A stretch of DNA of 64,000 nucleotides from assembly GCA_965214095.1 (NCBI GenBank), contig OZ243938.1, forward strand, positions 544,001 through 608,000. Direction: 5' to 3'. The stretch's first letter is position 1. Each line of letters begins with the position of its first letter. A program made the translations under genes and the position numbers. Source of the stretch: Candidatus Poribacteria bacterium. GTDB taxonomy: Bacteria > Poribacteria > WGA-4E > WGA-3G. A model generated the notes under the pieces. That model was not told the origin of the DNA, ran no database searches, and saw only the letters and a list, made by a program, of their open reading frames with translations. This document shows positions 3,942 to 62,339 of this stretch, piece after piece.

Positions 3942-4286
3942 CTATCCATTTACAAAAGGAGGATCGGTATAGAGCGTATCATTGTAACCCACATAAAATA
4001 CATTCCCAGTCCTAATAGTCGGAGCACGCAAACTACCACTACGTCCAAGTACTGCTTTGAGCACGGATTCACGATCATCTTCGTTAGGTTGGAAGGTTGC
4101 CACACTTTTCCCTTTTGCCACAACGATACTTTCAGCAGATTCCAACAAATCCCATACCGCATCTGCCTCTAACTTCTCTTTTCGTGCATCTGTCCGTTCT
4201 TTTACTTCTAAGTCATTCGTGTCAAGAAACTCTTGAACTTTCTTACACGAGTTTCAACTGTTCCTAAAATATATCCAATCAATCAT
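3942..4286 (-). CDS. ArsC-family thioredoxin-fold protein, probable selenoprotein (UxxC), 114 aa
   Basis: ATG at 4286 overlaps the upstream TAA. Reads MIDWIYFRNS-TGA(4254-4256)-NSCKKVQEFL... in frame into the 68-aa ORF containing GSLRAPT. Confidence 0.85.
4217..4250 (-). promoter_or_regulatory. Candidate SECIS stem-loop
   Basis: UCGUGU-AAGAAA-[GUUCAAGAG]-UUUCUU-G-ACACGA begins 3 nt after the in-frame UGA. Confidence 0.6.
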
Positions 4287-18851: not shown

Positions 18852-19649
18852 ATGAACGATAGGATACAACCCCTACATTGGTCGTTTAACTACAATCATG
18901 GTGCACAGAAACCCTATTATGCCGAGGAATTCCTCAAACTTCTTCATGAACTCCAGATAAATACACAAAATGATGACTATAGCGATGAACACCCAGAATA
19001 TATAAAACAAGTTTATGAGATCTTACCGAATTTCTGGAACGGATATTGTAGAACAAGTGAAGCATTAGCGATAGGAAATGTTGTTATAGAACGGAAACAT
19101 GAGAACAGTCATAATTGGTATTATAATGTTCACTACCAAAATACTTCAAGTGGAGAGAATATAAGATTCAATTTCCGTTGTCGTGATGATGCTTACCGTT
19201 CGCTTCTCGGCAGCTGGCAAGTTGATGTACAGAATAAGTCTGGAGATAGATATTCCAAAATTGAATTGAATGGAAATCTCATTTCTGATACCGAAATTCA
19301 ACTATACATCAATGATATTCAAATTGCTGCAGGAACTGTAGATAATTCCTCACCACTAACATGTAATTGGGCTTTGTACGATGTTATACCATCAATACTA
19401 AGTGACAACAGACAATTAGGTTTTTCTGTTGAGATCGCATTGCTTGATGACCTTGAACATCTTAGACAAAAATGCAATCTTGGTTTTCTCAATTCAATAC
19501 AAGAACCGTTACCGCTTGATGGATATTTCCTTTATGGAGAGGGACTCTTACCATCATATTGGTGGATAGATGCTAACCAAACCGTAGTTATCGTATCTAC
19601 TGTCTTTGAGACTTTGGTGTTAAAAGAGATTACAGGAGGTGTATCATGA
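18852..19649 (+). CDS. Hypothetical protein
   Basis: 265-aa ORF translationally coupled (ATGA) to the sulfatase. Confidence 0.7.
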   Translation: MNDRIQPLHWSFNYNHGAQKPYYAEEFLKLLHELQINTQNDDYSDEHPEYIKQVYEILPNFWNGYCRTSEALAIGNVVIERKHENSHNWYYNVHYQNTSSGENIRFNFRCRDDAYRSLLGSWQVDVQNKSGDRYSKIELNGNLISDTEIQLYINDIQIAAGTVDNSSPLTCNWALYDVIPSILSDNRQLGFSVEIALLDDLEHLRQKCNLGFLNSIQEPLPLDGYFLYGEGLLPSYWWIDANQTVVIVSTVFETLVLKEITGGVS

Positions 19650-21070
19650 ACGAACACCCAAACATTCTCTTTATCAACACTGACCAACACACTTGGGATG
19701 CAATATCCGCCTATGGAAATCCGTATCTTAATACTCCGAATATTGACCTACTCCACCAGAACGGAACTTCTTTTAGGAAATCCTACTGTACCGATCCTGT
19801 CTGTGCTGCTGCACGATCAAGTTGGGCAACTGGACTATACACATCGGAAACTGGTGTGCCTTTCAACGGCGGACAACTACATCCCGATATTCCTGATATC
19901 GGACAGCTACTTAGTAGCAACGGTTATAAGGCTTTCCATTGTGGTAAATGGCATGTACCAGGTAGAAATGTCCGCGATAGTTTTGAAGTCCTGTATTACG
20001 GAAACCGAAATATAGGTGCTGGTGGTGCTGCATATTACGATTCAGCGGCAACACATGCAGTCGCTGATTTCCTTACGAATTATGATGGCAAAGAACCTTT
20101 CTATCTGCAAATCGGATACATTGACCCTCATGATGTATGTGAATATTTACACAACCATGAGGAAAAACATATACCGAATCCATTAGAACAAGGAATACTT
20201 ACTGAAGACGATTTACCGCCATTACCGGAAAACTTCAACTATGATGAACGAGAAACTGTCCTACATCGTGTCTGTAGGAGGATTGATGGGGCACTGATCC
20301 ATGACAGAATCTTGCAAGCAGTCAAGAACTGGGATGAATATCATTGGCGATATTTCAGATGGAACTATTATAAATTTATTGAGAAAGTTGATGCCGAAAT
20401 TGGGAGAACACTTTCACTGTTAAGACAAACTCCTTTCTACGATAATACGGTGATTATCTTTAGCACTGACCACGGCGAAGCATCAGGAAGTCATCAAGGA
20501 TTCCAGAAATTCGCGCTATATGAAGAAGAAGTACATGTACCTTTTATCATCTCATGTTTAGGTGAAGGAGTACCGGTTCAGAAAGAACATTTAGATGAGA
20601 AGTATTTTGTCTCTGGAGTGGACATATTTCCAACCATCTGTGACTATGCCGGTATTGATATTCCTGAAACGTGTCAAGGAATGAGTCTCCGTCCGTTAGC
20701 AGAAGGCGAAGATATTCCTTGGCGGGAATATGCTTACATTGAAAGTAATTATTGGGGACGCTCAATTGTCACTGATGCCTACAAATACATTACTGAATAT
20801 AAGCCAAAAGATATAGAAGACTTCATACCACCCGGTCCAGATTCTGAACAACTTGGTCTTGTGCAGCTGTTTGATAGAAACAAAGATCCTTATGAAACTT
20901 TCAATCTCGTTGATTCACCAGAACATCAGAACGTTATTAATGCTTGTAGAGATAAACTCATTGAACAAGAAAATCGTCTTAATAGACGAGAAATTGTCCA
21001 GCAGAATCCGAAGAGAACTATAACAAATTGGGGTAATCGCCTCCGTGAGTATTGGATACACGGAAGGTAA
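19646..21070 (+). CDS. Sulfatase
   Basis: PNILFINTDQH, CAAARSSWATG, GKWH and STDHG motifs. Confidence 0.9.
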   Translation: MNEHPNILFINTDQHTWDAISAYGNPYLNTPNIDLLHQNGTSFRKSYCTDPVCAAARSSWATGLYTSETGVPFNGGQLHPDIPDIGQLLSSNGYKAFHCGKWHVPGRNVRDSFEVLYYGNRNIGAGGAAYYDSAATHAVADFLTNYDGKEPFYLQIGYIDPHDVCEYLHNHEEKHIPNPLEQGILTEDDLPPLPENFNYDERETVLHRVCRRIDGALIHDRILQAVKNWDEYHWRYFRWNYYKFIEKVDAEIGRTLSLLRQTPFYDNTVIIFSTDHGEASGSHQGFQKFALYEEEVHVPFIISCLGEGVPVQKEHLDEKYFVSGVDIFPTICDYAGIDIPETCQGMSLRPLAEGEDIPWREYAYIESNYWGRSIVTDAYKYITEYKPKDIEDFIPPGPDSEQLGLVQLFDRNKDPYETFNLVDSPEHQNVINACRDKLIEQENRLNRREIVQQNPKRTITNWGNRLREYWIHGR

Positions 21071-22605: not shown

Positions 22606-23508
22606 CTATTCCAATCCCCACTGTTTCTTCGCTTCTTCAAATGAAATCTTCTGACCGCCAGTATGGGATATTGGATTTTTACCCACCCAACGCTCATCAA
22701 TCGGGTGTTCAGCGGGTTGAAATCGGATGTCACAACTGATACGCCACCGATCTGATAGATTCTTCGTTGAGGTGTGCATCGTGTGCATCGTAAAGACGAT
22801 TATATCACCCATCTCAAAATCTGTCGTTTTCCATTCTCCTCCATACTTATCACTGATTGCCATAGGATCTCTACCAAAATGTCCTGGTGTGCCATCCTTA
22901 TCCACATCGGTTTTGCCATAAGTGTTACGCACAGGTGCAAAACTATCCAAACGATGTGAACCTTCAAGCAAAGTGAGTGTACCCATCGTCGCAGGCACAT
23001 CCCCGAAGGGAATCCAGCAGGTGTGTAACTGCTTTGAACCTCTTCCCATATAGACAAAATCAAAATGCGGACCAGACCAACCATCAGGTCGGACAAAACG
23101 TAGCCACTTGTAGTCAAACGTACGTGTCTCACCTTCAAAGAAATTGCGGAAGAACGCAAAAAGTTCATCACCTTCCAAAACAGAAAGTACATCTGGATGA
23201 TGTGTAACAGCAGGTGCACCCATCGTACGTCCCGGACTACCTGAACCAGCAATTGCATCCATCATATCAGTTCCCGGTTTGAATACTTCATCTTTCCCAT
23301 TTCCTTCTGCATATTCAAGAATAGCGCGTCGTGCTGCATTAACCTTATCCTTATCAATTAAGCCCCGAACGAGTAAATACCCATCTTCTGCTATTTGTTG
23401 ATGCAGTCCTTCTGCGGAATCAAGCACGTCGTTGCAATCCCGCAATACACCAAGGTGTGGTCCAGGAAAGGATACCTCGTGATCTCCGACAAATACGGTT
23501 TCAGCCAT
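22606..23508 (-). CDS. Phytanoyl-CoA dioxygenase (PhyH) family
   Basis: PHFD (HxD), EGSH, GD...H and RISCDIRFQ motifs. Confidence 0.88.
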   Translation of the reverse strand: MAETVFVGDHEVSFPGPHLGVLRDCNDVLDSAEGLHQQIAEDGYLLVRGLIDKDKVNAARRAILEYAEGNGKDEVFKPGTDMMDAIAGSGSPGRTMGAPAVTHHPDVLSVLEGDELFAFFRNFFEGETRTFDYKWLRFVRPDGWSGPHFDFVYMGRGSKQLHTCWIPFGDVPATMGTLTLLEGSHRLDSFAPVRNTYGKTDVDKDGTPGHFGRDPMAISDKYGGEWKTTDFEMGDIIVFTMHTMHTSTKNLSDRWRISCDIRFQPAEHPIDERWVGKNPISHTGGQKISFEEAKKQWGLE

Positions 23509-27089: not shown

Positions 27090-27962
27090 ATGGAACACTA
27101 CTTAGATATACAAAAACCTGAGTTAGGATATACTTACGAGTTTGAAACTGACCAACTATTTCAAGCATCTGAATGTATCGAAGCACACGGATTCGCTATT
27201 ATCAAGGACGTTTTGCCGGATGAATTAGTAGACAGTTTAAAGCAAACCGTATTTGATGGCACTGATCCAAATAGAGAATTGCAACATGGACAGAGTCGTA
27301 CACGACACGCTTGGATTGAAACTGGTGAAGGTGCATGGCAATTATTAGAATACGAACCGTTTATGAAGGTACATCAACATCTTATCGGGAATGATGAGTT
27401 GACTGTGCATAGATCAGCAGCTATCATTCGGATGCCGGGTTCACATCCAGTAGCGTGGCACACAGATTGGTGTGGATTCTCACAAGACACACCAAAAAAC
27501 TCTGGTGATGTGCTTAATAGAGGCATGTGGCCATCTGGTAAATGGTTTTATATCACAGGTTCGCGTCCAGAACACGGAGGTCTCTGCGTAATTGAAGACT
27601 CGCATGTGGAAAACTGGGAAGGACCAAAAGGCTTCAAACTGACTGCAGATAAACGTTCATTCTACAAAGAGGGTGGAGAAGAAAAGGCATACAATGACTT
27701 TGATATTCCGGGTTGTGTCCCACTATTTACCAATCCTGGTGATATGATTGTATTCGCACATAGAACCTATCACGGTGCATTTCCAAACCAGATTGATGAC
27801 ATACGTTTATCATGTGCTATTGGTTTTCGTAGACGCGACCATCACATAGATATTCCTTGGGAGATACCAGAAGTTGGTAAGCAATTCTTAGCAGATTTGC
27901 CACCACATCTACACAAATATACACATGGATATACCAGCATTGATACAGGTTGGCGAGGATAG
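27090..27962 (+). CDS. PhyH-family dioxygenase
   Basis: WHTD, GGLCVIEDSH and PGD...TYHG motifs. Confidence 0.88.
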   Translation: MEHYLDIQKPELGYTYEFETDQLFQASECIEAHGFAIIKDVLPDELVDSLKQTVFDGTDPNRELQHGQSRTRHAWIETGEGAWQLLEYEPFMKVHQHLIGNDELTVHRSAAIIRMPGSHPVAWHTDWCGFSQDTPKNSGDVLNRGMWPSGKWFYITGSRPEHGGLCVIEDSHVENWEGPKGFKLTADKRSFYKEGGEEKAYNDFDIPGCVPLFTNPGDMIVFAHRTYHGAFPNQIDDIRLSCAIGFRRRDHHIDIPWEIPEVGKQFLADLPPHLHKYTHGYTSIDTGWRG

Positions 27963-40148: not shown

Positions 40149-40982
40149 ATGGCATATAAAGGTTATATTAATCCTCATCTGGTCATATCAACAGAGGAAC
40201 TAAAAAGCAATCTTGATGACGACTCCTTATGTATTGTTGATACACGTCCAACGCATGAATACATACAGGGACATATCCCAGGGGCACTTCATCTGGATCT
40301 GTTTGGATTAAGCCTCATCAATACGCAGAAAGAAAATATGGATACATTCATGTGGATGATCGCATACTTATTCCAGCAACGTGGTCTTGATCCAGCAAAA
40401 ACTATAATCTGGTATGAAAACATCACAGGAACAAAAGCATCTCGTGGTTTATGGTTCTGTGAGTATTTAGGACATACAAATACTCGGGTATTGGATGGCG
40501 GCTATAATGCTTGGTTAGCAGCAGATGGTCCGGTCAGCACAGAAGGTGTTGAACCCCCTGAAATGCCACAATTCCCAATAGATGCAAAGCATGTTACACA
40601 CATGGACGCTGATAGCATACATGACAGGCTAAACCAAGATGATTTCATACCACTCGACACACGCACTGATGACGAACATTTTGGTAGGGTTGCTCGTGCT
40701 GAACGGGCAGGGGCAATACCGGGTTCTATTCATATTGAGTGGGTCAATAACCTTGATGAAAATGGCGCATTCAAACCTGCAGATGAACTACGAGATATGT
40801 ATGTAACAGCAGGAATCACACCAGAAAAACAGGTAATGTGCTACTGACAGGGCGGATACCGTTCTTCCCAAACCTATCTGGCTCTGCGACTTATCGGTTA
40901 TCCGAAGGTCAGCAACTATATTGGGTCTTGGAAAGAATGGGGTGACCGGCTGGATTTGCCGGTCGAAATTCCTGAAGAATAA
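40149..40982 (+). CDS. Two-domain rhodanese/sulfurtransferase, probable selenoprotein (277 aa)
   Basis: GHIPGA. ...VMCY-TGA(40845-40847)-QGGYRSS continues in frame to the canonical C-terminal signature YIGSWKEWG. Confidence 0.88.
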
Positions 40983-40984
40983 TC

Positions 40985-41890
40985 TATAGTAAACTTTAGA
41001 TTTTATGATACATGTTTATAACTTCATCAATGGTTCCATCTGCCTTGTATTCTCTAAGCCGTTTGATATTGGCAAAGTCATGTTCAATCGGATTGTAGTC
41101 AGGTGAATAAGGTGGTAAAAACAATACCTCTGCTCCCGATGCTTCTATCAACTCACGGGTGCGATGTGTCTTGTGTATCTTGGCATTATCAAGAACCACC
41201 ACGTCTGAGACAGACAACTTTGGACATAAATAGGTTTCAAGCCAAGCATTGAAACACGCAGCATCGCAGCTACCATCAAACAAACATGGTGCCGTAAAAG
41301 TTGAATCAATACGCGCAGCGACGAGCGTCGTTGTTCGTGTTCTAGTGCCTGAGATCAAATCTAAAATAGTTTCACCTTCGGAGCATAAGCATGCCGTCTA
41401 TAACTCTCAGCGCGAAAACCGCATTCATCAACATAAACTATCTTTTTCCCAGCGTCGTGTTTCTCGGCGAGTGCCTGAAGGTAGACTTGTCGTTTCTCGT
41501 CGCACCGCTCCTTGTATCCGAGTGTCTTTTTTTTCGCGTGATACCGAGTTTTCGCAGTCCATAACCGATACAAAACTCTGAAACACCGAAGTGTGCAGCA
41601 CGCTCTTTTTGTGTCAAGTCTGGGAAATCAGCGACATGTTTCCTGAGTGCCTCCTCATCAATCACTCTCATTTTTTTGGGTCCCGTTTTTCTAATGGCAA
41701 ACGGGTCGTCAGATGCTAACCATCTATCAATAGTTGAGCGTGCAACGGAAAACAGACGGGAAGCTTCAGATTTTTTCCCGCCAGCTTCAACAAAATCTAA
41801 AATGCGTTTTCGTAAATCTGGTGAATGTGCCATGGGAACATATTCTAACAAAAAACAAAAAATGTATCAATAATTCTAAATGTCACTATA
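40985..41890 (-). mobile_element. IS630-family insertion sequence, transposase inactivated
   Basis: Imperfect ~29-bp TIRs TATAGT...ACTATA with TA ends. HTH orfA starts at 41833, A8 slippery site at 41527-41534. DDE motifs VDECG, LDNA and SPDYNPIE. Confidence 0.92.
40996..41833 (-). pseudogene. IS630 transposase with an additional 1-nt frameshift near 41378
   Basis: YAPK should continue GETILDLISG but shifts frame and stops at 41361. Confidence 0.75.
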
Positions 41891-55556: not shown

Positions 55557-55988
55557 TTATTCCTTAGGCGATTCTATCTCTTCAATTGCAGTTTGTGCAC
55601 CTTGCCTCACAAGTGCCGAAGAGTCATTCTGAGCAAGTGCTTTTAGTCGTGTAAGACAATGTTCTGCTGCCAATTTTCCAAGCGCGACAGCAACAAAATA
55701 CCTCACGTCTGCGTCTTCATCGTCCAGTGCGTCAAGCAATGCATCAACATCTGAAGGACTTGCGATGTGTCGTTCAATGTCACCTATATTAATCAAAGCT
55801 TGTGCTGTAATCCGTCGAGTATGAATATCACCGTGTTTTAAAGAGGACAGCAATTCATCATTTCCATTGTTGATAGCAGACAAGTTATCCCAATCACAAT
55901 CTAAACAGAACCATGACTTTTCGTCTAACTTTTGCACATTAGCATGACCACATTGTGGACAAACTGCATACTCACTGGGTTGACTCAT
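55557..55988 (-). CDS. Zn-ribbon + HEAT-repeat protein
   Basis: CPQC...CLDC, then DADVRYFVAVALG HEAT repeats. Confidence 0.8.
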   Translation of the reverse strand: MSQPSEYAVCPQCGHANVQKLDEKSWFCLDCDWDNLSAINNGNDELLSSLKHGDIHTRRITAQALINIGDIERHIASPSDVDALLDALDDEDADVRYFVAVALGKLAAEHCLTRLKALAQNDSSALVRQGAQTAIEEIESPKE

Positions 55989-56359
55989 GATGGTCCAATT
56001 GCCTCCATTTCAGGTAAATCTCTCCATATTTCTGGTCCCTCTGGTTTGAAATTTATAGTTGCGATGAACTGCATGCCGTGATAGAAATTGATCTTGAACT
56101 TACCACCACCAAAATGCTGTTTCAGATAGTCTAACGGAGCATCAATCAATGGACCCATTTCGTCCGCATAATAAAATGCAAGTGGTTTGAATCGCACTGT
56201 GTTTCCAACAGGTTCCTGCACTAAGAGTTGTGCGGAGGTTGCGGGAAATAGCACCTGAAAAGCATCCCACAAATCAGCGACTGTCGGATTCGGATTACCT
56301 ATACGCTTTTTGAAGTCGTTATCAAGATATTCAGAAAATGTGTTAAAAACCCAGTCCAT
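55985..56359 (-). CDS. Hypothetical protein
   Basis: 124-aa ORF, ATGA-coupled to the HEAT protein. Confidence 0.75.
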   Translation of the reverse strand: MDWVFNTFSEYLDNDFKKRIGNPNPTVADLWDAFQVLFPATSAQLLVQEPVGNTVRFKPLAFYYADEMGPLIDAPLDYLKQHFGGGKFKINFYHGMQFIATINFKPEGPEIWRDLPEMEAIGPS

Positions 56360-56386: not shown

Positions 56387-56962
56387 TTATTGCTCTAAAT
56401 CCACGCGTCTATAAACTTCGTTTAAAGAAAGTTTGCATCCAATTGAGGAAAGTGTGAATGTCTCCTGAAGTTCTTGATATTCTTTTAATCTCCACTGAGT
56501 GCCTTGAATTCGATGATGTTCAACTTTAATCTTGTCTTGTGAAACGAGAATATATTCTTTTAAAGTGGCGATTTGTTTATAGTAATTGAACTTCTCTGTT
56601 CTGTCATATATCTCAGTTGAAGGTGAAAGCACCTCTATAATTACCACTGGGTTGAGAAGTGTATCAAAGGTATCATCCTCAAATTGTGATTCACCGCAGG
56701 CAATAACAACATCGGGATAGAAATATGATTCTGATTGACTTTCCTTGACACGCATGTCTCCTGAAAAAACTTCACAATCTCGGTCACGTAATTGGATATT
56801 TATCTCAGTTGCAATATCAAGTGTAATGTAATTATGTGCACGACTCGCACCCGACATTGCGAGTATCTCTCCTCTAAGATATTCACTCTTGAATGTTGCC
56901 TTGCGTTCTAAATATAGATATTCCTCAGGTGAATATATAGTTTGTGCTCCAAGAGATGACAT
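56387..56962 (-). CDS. Uma2 family endonuclease
   Basis: AMSGAS..HN, YPDV, IEVLSPST and EYILV motifs. Confidence 0.92.
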   Translation of the reverse strand: MSSLGAQTIYSPEEYLYLERKATFKSEYLRGEILAMSGASRAHNYITLDIATEINIQLRDRDCEVFSGDMRVKESQSESYFYPDVVIACGESQFEDDTFDTLLNPVVIIEVLSPSTEIYDRTEKFNYYKQIATLKEYILVSQDKIKVEHHRIQGTQWRLKEYQELQETFTLSSIGCKLSLNEVYRRVDLEQ

Positions 56963-57028
56963 GGTTCCCTCCTTAAAGGATGATAATTTACATTACAAAT
57001 ATTCATTGAAACAACAGATAGAAATATT

Positions 57029-57517
57029 TTACATTCCAGGAGCCTTTAAGAAGTCCTTCCAATCAAAATCTGGCAGAGGGAACTCCTCTGTGGCTTTACA
57101 TTGTCAAAAGGTGGCGGCACTTTCAAAGAATTCTATATCAACACGTTCAATCTCTGCTGAACGTGCATTTTCAGCAACGCGTTGAACAACCATCTCTCGG
57201 ACAAACGGAATAGGAATACGTTTGACGCGGTGAACAACTTCCTCTGTGCATGGAACATTTGTGTTGTCAAGGTAAGGTCCATCATGTAACGGTGTTTCTG
57301 CAGGATGATCGCATGTCTCAGGAACAAGTTGCTGTAATCGCATTGAAACGTAATCTGTGACCCACTGTTGAAATTTTTCAGTGTTTTCAGTTTCAGGAAC
57401 ACTTGGTTGATTCGTCTGATCTAACTTTTCATTTATGTTGACAAGTAGGTTTTCTAATCGTCCCAATCGGTCTTCCACATTTGTGAGACGTTCTTGAACT
57501 TTCGTTTGATCGCTCAT
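57029..57517 (-). CDS. Coiled-coil + PCP_red-like protein, candidate selenoprotein with U-x-C tail (162 aa; 137 aa if TGA terminates at 57104)
   Basis: KRIPIPFVREMVV PCP_red-like motif. ...SAATF-TGA(57104-57106)-QCKATEEFPLPDFDWKDFLKAPGM-TAA, with a hairpin 13 nt after the TGA. The CDS is solid; the readthrough is inferred. Confidence 0.65.
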
Positions 57518-57526
57518 GTTTCCTCC

Positions 57527-58246
57527 TTAGATTGTCCAATATTTCCATAGATCTTCCGGAATTTCGTATCTTATCTCTTCACGACGTTTATGATGATAGC
57601 GTGCAAATAGCCCAACTCGTGGGATGTCTCTGATATTGCCTGAACCTGTATGACACAAATATGCATGCCATAGCACGACATCACCCGCAGCTCCGATAAA
57701 CTCACGTGCTCCTTCTGGTGATGAATCAGAAAAAATATTCCAACCCCATCCCTCAATATCTCTAAAACTTCCATCAACCTGTTCAGGATATTTTAGGAAA
57801 TATTTGTGTGTTGTCCGATGGCTTTTTGGCCAAAACACGAAAGCACCACCACCCGGTTCAACATCATATAGATATGTGGTTGCACCCATCATGAATGGAC
57901 TCCAACCACCGGGACCGTAAGCATCAATGTGTCCGCTTCCAGGCAATGACCATTCTGCATCTGGGTTTGGCCATTTGACGAGAGGAGAACCCCCTCCGCC
58001 TGTAAATTCGCCTCCACTAAATTGCTGTATTATCGCTTGCATCTCCGGTAAATGTCCAAAGTTTGGAGAAAAACCGAAGTTTTCTACAACATAATTATCT
58101 GGCCATGTCTCTGGTGTTTCTAAACTGGAATTGAAATGCTTCCAAATCTGTTCACGCCAACCATTAATGACTTCTGTATCAATTAAGTTTTTAATAACCA
58201 GGTATCCGTTCTCTTGAAAAAACTCAACCTGTTTAGGTGCTAACAT
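57527..58246 (-). CDS. PhyH-family dioxygenase
   Basis: FFQENGYL, GHID, WPKSH and GDV..WH..LCH motifs. ATG at 58246 follows GAGGA. Confidence 0.85.
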   Translation of the reverse strand: MLAPKQVEFFQENGYLVIKNLIDTEVINGWREQIWKHFNSSLETPETWPDNYVVENFGFSPNFGHLPEMQAIIQQFSGGEFTGGGGSPLVKWPNPDAEWSLPGSGHIDAYGPGGWSPFMMGATTYLYDVEPGGGAFVFWPKSHRTTHKYFLKYPEQVDGSFRDIEGWGWNIFSDSSPEGAREFIGAAGDVVLWHAYLCHTGSGNIRDIPRVGLFARYHHKRREEIRYEIPEDLWKYWTI

Positions 58247-58313
58247 AAAAGTTTCCTCTATCGTCAAATGTTGTATTCGGGTAAAAGTCACTCCTACAGA
58301 AGAAATTACATAT

Positions 58314-59618
58314 CTAACTCTTAGGTCTGAAAGAGGGAATACCAGTCTTATCAAATCTGGATTTGACTGATTTCATAATTTCTGGAGTAATTTCCTGATA
58401 TCCGTGTTCACGCGCATATGTTTCAACACTCTTGACAACCATGCCACGCGCAAACGATGGCACACGTTTCAGTCTTTCTTCTGCAGCATCATTCCAAAGT
58501 AAATCGTAATCGGGTTCTGTGCCAAACGCTGTTCGTTTCTCAAGTTGTATAGGTTTATTGTCTCTTTGTCCTGGTTGGTATTCGCAAGATTCATCTGCTG
58601 CGAGATAGTTGCCAGTGGTAGCATAGGCACGTGCCCTACAACCACCGCATACTTCTTTAAATTCACATACCCCACATTTTCCCTCAAGCAAGTTCCGATT
58701 TCGTAATTCATCAAATGTTTCCGATTCATTCCACAGCTTGGAAAAACTTTCATCTTTAAGATTTCCAACGCTGACGGGAAGGTATGGACAAGGAGTCAAT
58801 TCACCTTCAGGACTAATGCGACAATAGTAGATACCACATGGACATGTGCCACTTGGATATCCCTGAAGGAATGCTGAGTCGGACTGCTGTTCATAAATGA
58901 CACGTTTGTAATGTGGTGCACATTTGGACGCAATAAGCATCTTCCCAATATAATCTTTCTGTAGTTTGAACATAGTATCCAGCATGTTCTCATATTGTTC
59001 TGGCGAGATGTCCATTACAGTCTTTCCTCTGCCTGTTCGGACGAGAAAATACAGATTTAGCACCTTTGCCCCTAACTGATATGCGAACTCAACGATCTTA
59101 GGAATTTCATCATAGTTCCACTGCGTAACTGATGTCTGTATAAGAAAATCAAGATGTGCGCGTTTAAGGGATTCTACCCCATTCATTGTCGCCTGCCATG
59201 CTCCCGGCATGCCACGAAACTTGTCATGTTCAGACGGTCGGATAGAATCTATACTTAATCCCGCTCCGGTTACACCGTGTTTTTGCATCTGCTCTACTAC
59301 ATCGTCATTGAGTAGCACACCGTTAGTTCCCATCACAACAAGAAAACCCGTATCCGATGCATATTTTGAAATCTCAAGAATATCTGGACGCAGCAACGGT
59401 TCCCCACCTGTAAGTATCAATAGGATATGAGGATTGATTTCCGCAATCTCATCAATAACGCGAAAGCATTCTGATTGTGTTAACTCAGATTCTCTGTGAT
59501 ACCCGTGCGGGAACTCGTCTGTGTCTACGAAACCCGCTGGTAGATAGCAGTGCATACATTTCAGATTACATAATCTGGTGATATTCCATGAGACTGCTTG
59601 AACTTTTGTTTTTTCCAT
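58314..59618 (-). CDS. Radical SAM/SPASM enzyme (NirJ/Ahb/PqqE-like) with C-terminal PCP_red-like domain
   Basis: CNLKCMHC, TGGEP, SPASM Cys pattern (CPC...PCPY...CGVC...CGGCRARA...C). Tail WNDAAEERLKRVPSFARGMV. Confidence 0.9.
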   Translation of the reverse strand: MEKTKVQAVSWNITRLCNLKCMHCYLPAGFVDTDEFPHGYHRESELTQSECFRVIDEIAEINPHILLILTGGEPLLRPDILEISKYASDTGFLVVMGTNGVLLNDDVVEQMQKHGVTGAGLSIDSIRPSEHDKFRGMPGAWQATMNGVESLKRAHLDFLIQTSVTQWNYDEIPKIVEFAYQLGAKVLNLYFLVRTGRGKTVMDISPEQYENMLDTMFKLQKDYIGKMLIASKCAPHYKRVIYEQQSDSAFLQGYPSGTCPCGIYYCRISPEGELTPCPYLPVSVGNLKDESFSKLWNESETFDELRNRNLLEGKCGVCEFKEVCGGCRARAYATTGNYLAADESCEYQPGQRDNKPIQLEKRTAFGTEPDYDLLWNDAAEERLKRVPSFARGMVVKSVETYAREHGYQEITPEIMKSVKSRFDKTGIPSFRPKS

Positions 59619-60077
59619 TTAATTTCTCAGTAGCAATGAAAGAGCAAAAACAACTGAACCCGATAACAGTGTTAGATATCCAAGAACATTGACATGTGTA
59701 GGTACAGTGATTGAACTGTCAGGCTCCACTGCTTCAAGGTGTTTGCGATATAATGAACTGTATAATCCCCAGCAAAGTGCCATAATGCCAAATGCTGCCA
59801 ATTTTGCTGCAGAATATATCATATACTCCGATTCTACTTGCATATTATTATTCCACGCAACAATGAAAATTACAATACCACCTGTCAATAGAATGATGTT
59901 TATTGTCAATCGCATTGCACCTTGAAAGCGATTGTGAATGTCTAACAACACATTTGCTTGGAGTTTTTTCTGGCCTAAAGGTATTGCTATGAAAGAATAA
60001 AAGAACACGCCTCCGAACCATAAGATTGCTGCGATTAGATGTATACATCGGAGGGAAAGTTCAACGACTTGGCGCAT
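59619..60077 (-). CDS. 4-TM membrane protein (CopD/DUF4149-like)
   Basis: IHLIAAILWFGG motif and four hydrophobic helices. Confidence 0.7.
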   Translation of the reverse strand: MRQVVELSLRCIHLIAAILWFGGVFFYSFIAIPLGQKKLQANVLLDIHNRFQGAMRLTINIILLTGGIVIFIVAWNNNMQVESEYMIYSAAKLAAFGIMALCWGLYSSLYRKHLEAVEPDSSITVPTHVNVLGYLTLLSGSVVFALSLLLRN

Positions 60078-60119: not shown

Positions 60120-60434
60120 TTATACATCATCACATCTCTCATAAAAACTAACCCCATGAAGTTCAATTTGTGCTACCATATCTGGATTTCCTATTTTACT
60201 AAAATCGGATATGTCAATTGTATAGGGTAGAAGCAGATCATCAAGATCAAAGTCAATTTTAGTGAGTACGCTGTGTGTTAATCCTTCACCACAGAATGTT
60301 AGGTCAATGTCAGAGCCGTTTCGATATGTACCCGTTGCACGTGATCCATACAAAATTGCTTTATAAATCTGTGGATACTTTTGAAAGACACTATGTATTT
60401 TTTCAATAGTGCTGTCTGATAATCCGTATTTCAT
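60120..60434 (-). CDS. Minimal nucleotidyltransferase (MNT antitoxin)
   Basis: LYGSRA...SDIDL. Confidence 0.9.
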   Translation of the reverse strand: MKYGLSDSTIEKIHSVFQKYPQIYKAILYGSRATGTYRNGSDIDLTFCGEGLTHSVLTKIDFDLDDLLLPYTIDISDFSKIGNPDMVAQIELHGVSFYERCDDV

Positions 60435-60439
60435 AAAAA

Positions 60440-60853
60440 CTATTCCTGTTCAAGTTGTTTTAATCTTGCTAACAACGTCTCAAACTCAGAGTAATAAATA
60501 TTGAGAATTGCCAATACCACCTCTTCTGCGGTATCTTCATTATATGTATGGGTTGTTAGATTACGATGTCGTATCATATCCATCCAGGCTTCTCCATTTT
60601 CGATTATTCCTTCTTTGAATGCTGCACGTGTTGTATCGCGAGAACCATAAAGTTTGAAATCTTGTGATTGAAGAAAATCCTTGAGGGTATTCCATGCTAA
60701 TTCATGAGTATATACAAATCCTTGTATCAAACCCTGGGCTTCTAAATCAGAGAGTTCCCGTTTCTTAGCAAGGTCTACAGCTTCCTTTAGTCGAGAAAAC
60801 GCTTTACGAAAACTATCAGCTCTCTGTTTCCAGCGGTTGGTAGGAAGGTTCAT
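60440..60853 (-). CDS. HEPN / nucleotidyltransferase substrate-binding protein (HI0074-like)
   Basis: RWKQR, ELAW and RNLTTHTY (Rx4H) motifs. Confidence 0.9.
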   Translation of the reverse strand: MNLPTNRWKQRADSFRKAFSRLKEAVDLAKKRELSDLEAQGLIQGFVYTHELAWNTLKDFLQSQDFKLYGSRDTTRAAFKEGIIENGEAWMDMIRHRNLTTHTYNEDTAEEVVLAILNIYYSEFETLLARLKQLEQE

Positions 60854-60911: not shown

Positions 60912-61430
60912 CTACATTGGAAAGTTTCCGCGTGCTGCATCCATTACTTCAGCAGTAATTTCAGTATGTCCATTGTCTTTGGCAAAACCTTCAATTCCCA
61001 TTTTCGCCATCGGACGCACAAAACTTGGGATTCGCTCTAACCGTTCCAATGCTTCTGGAGTCCATTTTACTCCATCAGGTTCTGGTTCTGCTTGCTCCTC
61101 AAAAGCATCCGAGATAACTGAGGTAAAGGGACATTTACCGCCTTCTTCTGATTTGCTTATGTCTGTGTCAAAGGTAGTATCAGTCATCATATCTGGTTTA
61201 GAGGTCTCTAACTGTGAACGTATCAACTGCATTGGTTGAGCTGCAGCGTTACTTCCCCCGAGTTTCAGGTCTAAGGATTTCAACATCTGTGTTTCTGAAG
61301 GGTTTAGGAACATAGCAATCTCAGTGAAACACTCTGGACACTCAAATACTGCGGTGACAGATCCCTGTTCAGGTTGGGTTACGTCTTTGAATTTCATTGC
61401 CGTGTCGCAGTCTATACATAGGAATTTCAT
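60912..61430 (-). CDS. Zn-ribbon + CPF + PCP_red-like domain protein
   Basis: CIDC...CPEC, GKCPF, and WTPEALERLERIPSFVRPMAK. Confidence 0.85.
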   Translation of the reverse strand: MKFLCIDCDTAMKFKDVTQPEQGSVTAVFECPECFTEIAMFLNPSETQMLKSLDLKLGGSNAAAQPMQLIRSQLETSKPDMMTDTTFDTDISKSEEGGKCPFTSVISDAFEEQAEPEPDGVKWTPEALERLERIPSFVRPMAKMGIEGFAKDNGHTEITAEVMDAARGNFPM

Positions 61431-61466: not shown

Positions 61467-62339
61467 CTAAATTTTGAAGAAATCTTGTATCTTCTGAGAT
61501 ACCTCTGATATGGATTTACTTGCTAAAGATTTCGGGTATTCGTGGACATAAGGTGTACCGTTGTCGTTACATAAAGACAACTTTGGATCGAAAGGTATCT
61601 TTCCAAGGAGCATTTGCTGAAACGATGTATCATCAGCAGAAAAGAGTTGTTCGTGTTCACCGCAGTGCTGGCATACATAGAATGCCATATTTTCAACAAC
61701 TCCAATGATTGGCACGTTGAGTATGTCACTTGCCATAGAAATAGATTTCTTTACGATCAGGTTTGACACATCGGAAGGAATGGTTACAACGACGACACCA
61801 CCGAGATTTGGAATGAGTTCAACAACATTTGGTAAACGATCAGAACCTGGTGGCAGATCAAGCAGTAGAAAATCTAACGCTCCCCAATCAGTGTCACCGA
61901 TAAACTCCCTTAATGCTCCTACTTCCATAGTGCTACGCCATGTGAATGCATCCTTTTGGGTGTGCGCGTTCCATAATACTGGTGCATCATCGTCTGATAG
62001 GAGTAGATCCATTGAAATGACTTTTGTACCGAGTGATGTTATAGCCGGTTTGACACCAGATTCAACATACTCAAGCGAGGTGTTTCGAACACCCATCATT
62101 TTGGCGATCGTAGGTCCGTTGATATCAGCATCAACAACACCGACAGCAAAACCAGATAATGTTAGGGCAGTCGCAAGGTTTACCGTTACAGCACTCTTTC
62201 CGACTCCTCCTTTTCCACTCATAATTGTGATGGTATGTTTCACCGATGCCAGGCGCGTACTGATTCGGTTCGCTTGTGCGGTGACTTGTCCAATTATGTT
62301 AGAACCTGCATCCTTTGGGAGTTCCTCGTAAGTTTTCAT
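61467..62339 (-). CDS. Mrp/ApbC/NBP35 Fe-S carrier ATPase
   Basis: SGKGGVGKS, DADINGP, DLPPG and ENM..CQHC motifs. Confidence 0.92.
   Translation of the reverse strand: MKTYEELPKDAGSNIIGQVTAQANRISTRLASVKHTITIMSGKGGVGKSAVTVNLATALTLSGFAVGVVDADINGPTIAKMMGVRNTSLEYVESGVKPAITSLGTKVISMDLLLSDDDAPVLWNAHTQKDAFTWRSTMEVGALREFIGDTDWGALDFLLLDLPPGSDRLPNVVELIPNLGGVVVVTIPSDVSNLIVKKSISMASDILNVPIIGVVENMAFYVCQHCGEHEQLFSADDTSFQQMLLGKIPFDPKLSLCNDNGTPYVHEYPKSLASKSISEVSQKIQDFFKI

Follow-up and report, generated by a model that had tools for sequence, protein, structure and literature searches.

Does the TGA codon that ends a small annotated gene of Candidatus Poribacteria stop translation, or does it encode selenocysteine (Sec, U)? 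The gene lies on the - strand, at 57517..57029, of a 64 kb stretch of contig OZ243938.1, the whole of which is called the window here. Its ATG (57517..57515) opens an open reading frame (ORF) of 137 codons, the product of which has the C-terminus ...SAATF. When TGA is translated as U, 57517..57029 yields 162 residues, 25 more than the annotated length. This readthrough had been proposed in an initial annotation, made from the letters alone, and proved exact on retranslation (TGA 57106..57104, Q-C, KATEEFPLPDFDWKDFLKAPGM, TAA 57031..57029). Within the tail lies the peptide ATEEFPLPDFDWK. Since the tail, as read from the sequence, has no ATG, GTG or TTG start ahead of its last codon, it is not a separate gene. 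We consider it very probable that UGA 57106..57104 is a selenocysteine codon and that this is a genuine selenoprotein gene encoding 162 rather than 137 amino acids. The tail is conserved, the RNA behind the UGA is structured, the gene order is preserved and Sec is apparently used elsewhere in the host; from these sequence data we infer Sec itself.

Relatives of the target were collected in two ways. A word-indexed search of 5.8 billion proteins returned 1244, of which the 120 best all end in ...TF and cover at most 85% of the 162-residue query. Likewise, TF is the C-terminus of 151/151 of the close homologues listed. Scanning one genome per species yielded 144 relatives, of which the best 80 loci were kept; all are from metagenome-assembled genomes, labelled Poribacteria in all but a few instances that are labelled only as uncultured bacterium. 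Codon 138 is TGA in 80/80 loci and in the window, that is, in 81 sequences from separate species-level genomes, and neither TAA nor TAG was found at this position in any of them. One locus (L033) ends at a contig edge, leaving 80 sequences with a complete tail (79 loci plus the window). In these, the open frame including the Sec codon comprises 24 codons in 45 sequences and 25 in the other 35, and it is closed by TAA (62) or TAG (18). The tail has the consensus UQC[K/E]A[T/S]EEFPLP[D/N]FDWKDFLKAP, followed by one or two variable residues, and contains an invariant Cys two residues after the UGA (U138-Q-C140). Beyond the final TAA or TAG the sequences are unrelated among loci.

The tail varies as a protein-coding sequence does. 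Its column entropy is 0.105, 0.015 and 0.486 at codon positions 1, 2 and 3, respectively. When all pairs of sequences were compared over codons 139-160, we counted 13781 synonymous and 3347 non-synonymous codon differences. In the two other sense frames the ratios are 3110:11082 and 1586:12527, and stops occur in 80/80 and 77/80 sequences. P149 and P160 are each encoded by all four proline codons and A159 by three alanine codons, while the amino acids are nearly invariant. Conservation with a synonymous bias thus extends past the UGA in the proposed frame only among the sense frames and ends at the final stop. An ORF on the opposite strand (+ strand 56889..57185) was considered and rejected, as the loci show no conservation where it starts.

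Synonymous sites in the tail are nevertheless more constrained than those upstream of the UGA: the mean synonymous-codon entropy is 0.50 over 21 tail codons vs 1.24 over 49 upstream codons (Mann-Whitney p = 6e-6). The protein sequence is thus not the sole constraint on these codons. A candidate selenocysteine insertion sequence (SECIS) element, hairpin A, had already been pointed out in the initial annotation, and its sequence, its spacing of 13 nucleotides and the G in its loop (at the second base) were borne out. In 79 distinct sequences its stem is paired in 474/474 cells; the only changes are from A-U to G-U, in 7 and 3 sequences. Its mean energy is -8.75 kcal/mol, and it is part of the minimum free energy structure of 44/79 sequences. 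The synonymous sites of codons 142-148 are nearly frozen, which a bacterial SECIS would lead one to expect. Within the window, a hairpin meeting the criteria of A follows 22/2724 TGA trinucleotides (0.8%), the criteria having been set post hoc. Taken with the retention of TGA, frame and hairpin among the relatives, this places the observation far beyond chance. A terminator reading was rejected, since a simple scan finds no terminator-like site, and the stretch has no match in Rfam.

There is a second helix in the same RNA. The RNAalifold consensus prefers helix B, with 14 pairs (in alignment A3, columns 25-27 with 75-77 and 31-41 with 59-71), and B and hairpin A are mutually exclusive. The mean energy of helix B is -14.2 kcal/mol, compared to -8.75 for hairpin A. 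A second patch of frozen synonymous sites covers codons 153-158 (UGG AAG GAC UUC UUR AAG), and those of codons 154, 155, 156 and 158 are explained by helix B only. In terms of columns, the frozen 42 and 45 pair in hairpin A only and the frozen 27, 63, 66, 69 and 75 in helix B only, while the unpaired columns 18, 21, 48, 72, 78 and 81 vary freely. In bacterial SECIS elements, a G lies within the first two bases of the apical loop, about 16-37 nucleotides from the UGA; the bSECIS model of Zhang and Gladyshev from 2005 reportedly describes a stem-loop shortly 3' of the UGA with a G starting the apical loop. Hairpin A presumably fits this model and helix B does not, and the choice between them as the SECIS is one that we infer. 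The two competing helices could form an RNA switch.

If recoding proceeds as established for bacteria, SelB would bring Sec-tRNA(Sec) and bind hairpin A as the UGA occupies the ribosome. Sec would then be inserted, and translation would go on for 24 codons to the UAA. Whenever the UGA is not recoded, the tail-less product of 137 residues would result.

If the host recodes UGA, other genes should show it. Two further Sec candidates had been claimed for the window, and a readthrough scan found both, each in a known selenoprotein family. One is a two-domain rhodanese. Its readthrough product aligns end to end with solved sulfurtransferases, and its TGA, in the motif MCY-U-QGGYRS, corresponds in this alignment to the Cys in the loop HCQTHHRS of 1e0c_A (E 2.7e-40), which we take to be the catalytic Cys of rhodanese. 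An annotation-style ORF for this gene is short by 44 residues. The protein fits the rows "rhodanese-like form 2/4, UxxG" in Table 1 of PMC13188914. Just downstream lies a split IS630-type transposase gene (40999..41851, -). The other candidate is an ArsC/Spx-fold protein, which scores 129 bits against NCBIfam NF041106, "ArsC family (seleno)protein" (cut-off 85). Its Sec is aligned to the first Cys of the Spx CxxC motif, and a bulged stem-loop of 12 bp begins 5 nucleotides after the UGA. Together, the rhodanese and ArsC-family sequences imply that the host uses Sec. TGA is also the terminal stop of 13/48 Pfam-supported ORFs in the window, so the code is not reassigned, and genome-wide reassignment of TGA was rejected on this ground. 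According to a passage of PMC5649159, most bins of sponge symbionts, which come from various phyla, have SelA and SelB, and one of PMC13582414 names Poribacteria among the phyla with Sec-containing hydrogenases.

An exhaustive phmmer search of 1.84 billion representatives (50% identity) gave 67 matches. Ten of these representatives, several of them from high-GC organisms, end exactly in ...[AS][AS]TF. The distant representative P0133 has W at the position of codon 138 and continues W-QCKLSGEDLLSFDRWKEHVLGGPRL (QCK...FDRWK), which would result from a gene caller translating TGA as Trp. Scoring on residues 100-162 alone would rank tail-bearing proteins first; the best 120 of 571 matches to these residues all stop at residue 137. 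No longer or fused form was obtained, none of 16 candidates having scored, which is weak evidence. In the ESM Atlas the 137-residue form falls into unnamed clusters (Poribacteria 0.97; Rokuibacteriota, the commonest phylum of the related cluster, 0.95). Some orthologues (L019 4001..4552, P0055, P0063 and P0072) carry a EELQQCLLDTIEKTVEETFSQNG-like insertion of 22 residues between the N-terminal helices and have 159 amino acids before the UGA.

The protein was modelled with AlphaFold2 from a 24-row alignment (predicted local distance difference test score, pLDDT, 72). The model contains helices at residues 2-35, 42-64, 92-99, 104-121 and 128-134, with a three-helix PCP_red-like domain at about residues 90-135. 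The tail is of low confidence, with pLDDT <50 over residues 138-147. The best Foldseek matches are the PCP_red structures 2l09 and 2kru, with template modelling (TM) scores normalised to the target of 0.65-0.66 and weak E-values of 0.06-0.11. Many orthologues carry a precomputed PF08369 label. C90 is invariant in full-length sequences and C69 in Poribacteria. A PHROGs search gave only weak matches of the coiled-coil type. U138-Q-C140 would open a flexible C-terminal arm, which then runs into the strongly conserved acidic/aromatic motif. On this mobile arm, U-x-C may act as a redox-active selenenylsulfide or as a Se/S metal ligand.

The target belongs to a conserved gene cluster in the order CopD/HemJ-like membrane protein, radical S-adenosylmethionine (SAM)/SPASM enzyme, PhyH, target, 124-residue protein and HEAT protein (Table 1). 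Across the 80 loci, the neighbours are present in 69 (CopD/HemJ-like), 78 (radical SAM), 80 (PhyH), 77 (124-residue protein) and 77 (HEAT). Against NCBIfam, the radical SAM enzyme scores best with AhbD (9.9e-98, 328 bits) and NirJ2 (2.7e-92, 310 bits), both below the cut-offs. Its PCP_red domain is 35% identical to that of the target over 40 residues (E 5e-4), and the motif R-[IV]-P-x-F-[VA]-R-x-M is common to both. A complex prediction for the enzyme with the 137-residue form lacking the Sec tail scored 0.00, a value that says nothing for or against binding. The target may work with the co-transcribed PhyH-like dioxygenase and the AhbD/NirJ-like enzyme, for example as the electron partner of the latter in a tetrapyrrole-type reaction. 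The 124-residue protein was modelled at pLDDT 63 and had no Foldseek match at E up to 0.001; a likeness to GAF/phytochrome domains was discarded as meaningless (TM about 0.2, root-mean-square deviation about 16 Å).

Table 1. Features of the target gene, its RNA and neighbouring genes, and the two other Sec candidates of the window.
Feature	Position	Strand	Evidence or remark
Codons 1-137	57107..57517	-	ORF list
In-frame UGA, codon 138, proposed Sec codon	57104..57106	-	TGA in 80 loci and the window
Hidden C-terminal tail, codons 139-162: Q-C (CAA TGT), then KATEEFPLPDFDWKDFLKAPGM	57032..57103	-	translation
Proposed true stop, TAA	57029..57031	-	end of sequence similarity among relatives
Shine-Dalgarno sequence AAGGAGG	57522..57528	-	4 nucleotides before the ATG; shares bases with the upstream PhyH stop codon, TAA
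Hairpin A, candidate SECIS: CAGAGG / loop AGUUC / CCUCUG	57074..57090	-	starts 13 nucleotides after the UGA
Alternative helix B: GCC/GGC (57094..57092 with 57044..57042) and GAGGAGUUCCC with GG..GGACUUCUU (57088..57078 with 57060..57048)	57042..57094	-	
PhyH-like Fe(II)/2-oxoglutarate dioxygenase	57527..58354	-	Pfam PhyH 2.8e-9; immediately upstream; likely start ATG near 58249
Radical SAM/SPASM enzyme, AhbD/NirJ2-like	58314..59618	-	Pfam Radical_SAM, SPASM, C-terminal PCP_red
Small membrane protein, weakly CopD/HemJ(UPF0093)-like	59619..60077	-	Pfam below cut-off; NCBIfam CopD 2.6e-7, below cut-off
Conserved 124-residue protein, usual downstream neighbour	55985..56359	-	no Pfam, NCBIfam or PHROG match
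HEAT-repeat protein, N-terminal Cys4 ribbon	55557..55988	-	Pfam HEAT_2 2.9e-11
Two-domain rhodanese, candidate Sec TGA at 40845..40847	40149..40982	+	readthrough product vs Pfam Rhodanese 1.6e-37
ArsC/Spx-fold protein, 114 residues, candidate Sec TGA at 4256..4254	3942..4286	-	U-N-S-C at residues 11-14

In the window the cluster is interrupted by small mobile-type insertions. A Uma2 endonuclease gene (56962..56387, -) is inserted between the target and the gene for the 124-residue protein, and such a gene follows the target in 25/80 loci too. A nucleotidyltransferase/substrate-binding (MNT/HEPN-like) pair (60120..60853, -) lies before the CopD-like gene; its two members occur in 16 and 6 of 80 loci. 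Further upstream, a second stand-alone PCP_red protein of 172 residues with an N-terminal CxxC...CxxC (Cys4) ribbon is encoded at 60915..61430 (-) and adjoins the gene for an MrpORP/ApbC-like Fe-S carrier ATPase (61470..62339, -). A span of 4.5 kb thus holds three PCP_red modules. The genes for the 172-residue PCP_red protein and the Fe-S ATPase fall within the flanks of 10 and 4 loci, respectively, out of 80. The window contains three genes of PhyH-family dioxygenases (22609..23508, -; 27090..27959, +; 57527..58354, -) and a sulfatase gene (19646..21067).

Several results weigh against the selenoprotein reading or parts of it. None of selA, selB, selD and tRNA-Sec (searched with aragorn) was found in the 64 kb window or in the roughly 8 kb around each locus. 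Compensatory changes are absent from hairpin A in the 79 distinct sequences and from all 14 pairs of helix B. The shuffle control for hairpin A (500/500) is uninformative because the stem hardly varies, and a fold of 65 nucleotides as a single sequence, at z = -0.23, is not unusually stable, 77/200 shuffles folding as well. One antisense frame, whose wobble positions coincide with those of the tail, has a synonymous to non-synonymous ratio of 10099:4014 and no stops. Two representatives, P0156 and P0164, carry R in place of Sec and continue with x-C; both are metagenomic and look frameshifted elsewhere, and they may reflect sequencing errors, pseudogenes or a real change from TGA to CGA. Homologues with either Cys or TGA at position 138 had been anticipated. 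TGA was found in the 80 loci, whereas no Cys form appeared among the best 120 of the 571 matches to residues 100-162, among the 67 representatives at 50% identity or among longer proteins. The usual sign of a selenoprotein family, a Sec/Cys pair among homologues, is therefore missing. Almost all selenoproteins have Cys homologues, as a passage of the deep-Sep paper states (PMC12013277); we regard this as a usual property of selenoprotein families and not a strict requirement. As for the protein, Pfam PCP_red (PF08369) matches residues 93-134 with E 1.5e-4 and 22.2 bits, below the gathering threshold of 32.5. The initial label "PCP_red protein" accordingly holds by fold, with 2l09 and 2kru on top, and fails by curated Pfam score; the target is a divergent member of PCP_red in the former sense. 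Every functional statement made here is drawn from the motif, the predicted disorder and the synteny.

How else could the locus be read? If the UGA were a real stop, the protein would have 137 residues, and the downstream conservation would belong to a non-coding RNA (attenuator, terminator or small RNA) or to a gene on the opposite strand. The two conserved helices, the stop-free antisense frame and the fact that all database annotations end at codon 138 agree with this. It does not account for the concentration of tail variation at third codon positions, for unpaired four-fold sites that vary freely while the amino acid is fixed, or for a frame whose length is held at 24-25 codons in 80 genomes, with conservation ending at its stop. 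The + strand ORF, moreover, begins in non-conserved sequence, and neither a terminator-like site nor an Rfam match is at hand. A true stop is extremely unlikely in our view. Alternatively, the tail could be translated by means other than the Sec machinery, with the UGA being read by a standard tRNA (a near-cognate Trp, Cys or Arg tRNA) or through local leakiness. The Sec genes were not seen directly in the window or the locus flanks, W (P0133) and R (P0156 and P0164) occur at the position, and no Cys homologue was found that would anchor the Sec assignment. Yet any sense codon could serve such a purpose, and the codon stayed TGA in 81/81 sequences. It belongs to a U-x-C motif whose Cys is invariant, and it is followed by a stem-loop with a G near the loop start, at the spacing expected of bacterial SECIS elements. 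A rhodanese gene of the same genome has TGA where the active-site loop would carry Cys, and an NF041106 ArsC (seleno)protein gene also contains an in-frame TGA. We judge readthrough by a standard tRNA to be very unlikely.

The main functional rival accepts Sec at the UGA and differs in the role of the protein, which would be a substrate: its U-Q-C...PLPxFDWKDF tail would be modified by the radical SAM/SPASM enzyme and PhyH, with PCP_red as recognition handle, as in ribosomally synthesised and post-translationally modified peptides or in cofactor maturation. The genes for these enzymes immediately precede the target in 78 and 80 of 80 loci, respectively. Its tail shows extreme conservation and is modelled as disordered, and PCP_red is present in both target and radical SAM enzyme. 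Sec peptides matured by radical SAM enzymes do exist, namely the selenobacteriocin TIGR04081 with SbtM (PMC13188914 Table 1). Here, however, the enzyme is far nearer to AhbD/NirJ2 than to peptide maturases (<=132 bits), no protease or exporter was seen in the conserved cluster, a folded "leader" of 137 residues with a coiled coil would be atypical, and no NCBIfam peptide-precursor model matched. More specifically, the target does not match TIGR04081 (SbtA), and the enzyme reaches 72 bits against SbtM (TIGR04082), the cut-off of which is 350. We consider a substrate role unlikely and favour a selenoprotein whose U-x-C arm would assist the AhbD-like enzyme and the neighbouring proteins.

The target can be compared to several known systems. 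Selenoproteins with a SECIS in the coding region and a short C-terminal extension truncated by annotation have been described (the approach of Haft; PMC13188914, 10.1101/2022.07.06.499078). The target resembles them in the UGA taken for a stop, the in-frame continuation, the stem-loop nearby and the Sec-Cys pair, and differs from them in its PCP_red fold and in that no Cys homologues were found. Known U-x-C selenoproteins, one type with a thioredoxin fold and one a membrane transporter, have the same Sec-Cys spacing but unrelated folds, whereas the motif of the target opens a disordered arm after a helical domain. PF08369 makes up the C-terminus of the B subunit of protochlorophyllide reductase (BchB/ChlB) and also forms small stand-alone proteins (Nostoc asr4154; 2l09, 2kru). 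These share the three-helix module with the target, which has in addition a pair of long helices at its N-terminus, two invariant Cys and the Sec tail. Genes for the dark-operative protochlorophyllide oxidoreductase do not adjoin the target. Mammalian thioredoxin reductase has a C-terminal arm with Gly-Cys-Sec-Gly. The analogy lies in a Sec/Cys pair that is borne by a flexible extension at the C-terminus and could shuttle electrons as a selenenylsulfide. There is no homology between the two: the reductase has C-U where the target has U-x-C, and the target has 22 more conserved residues and no flavoprotein domain.

The initial annotation had placed the protein outside the known families, and we found nothing to contradict it. 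The 162-residue product matches no family of NCBIfam release 20 at E up to 0.01, and none of the 119 families in Table 1 of the 2026 review PMC13188914, where the families of Haft and Tolstoy 2025 were covered as rows, is a PCP_red/PF08369 entry. Literature searches returned nothing on a selenoprotein with PCP_red and nothing relevant on PCP_red/PF08369 alone; for Poribacteria and selenoproteins, only hydrogenases were returned. In the deep-Sep paper, the Haft 2022 preprint and the BSepDB paper, PCP_red terms are absent from the main text. A PCP_red domain with a flexible U-x-C tail thus appears to define a real, apparently undescribed selenoprotein family in sponge-associated Poribacteria. 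New selenoprotein families are reported regularly; what is unusual here is the lack of Cys homologues together with a pair of competing conserved helices.

We can also picture, as a doubtful extension, an obligate-Sec family without any Cys form, in which a two-state RNA (A vs B, both with frozen synonymous sites in about 80 species) could set the ratio of the 137- to the 162-residue product. The AhbD-like radical SAM enzyme, through a common PCP_red docking module, would either be served by the Sec arm or modify it. If true, this would link selenium to a tetrapyrrole-type pathway in sponge symbionts.

The protein entries listed, all 151 of the close homologues, end at the UGA, so that the likely active site is missing from them. 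Being without Cys homologues, the family would be missed by methods that rely on Sec/Cys pairs, a limitation stated by the deep-Sep authors themselves in a passage of their paper (PMC12013277). The mutually exclusive conserved helices provide a testable case for the regulation of Sec insertion. The finding would add the PCP_red fold and its neighbourhood (AhbD/NirJ-like radical SAM, PhyH and HemJ/CopD-like proteins) to the known selenoproteome. It would also give a first functional handle on stand-alone PCP_red proteins, on whose role outside protochlorophyllide reductase we found no paper.

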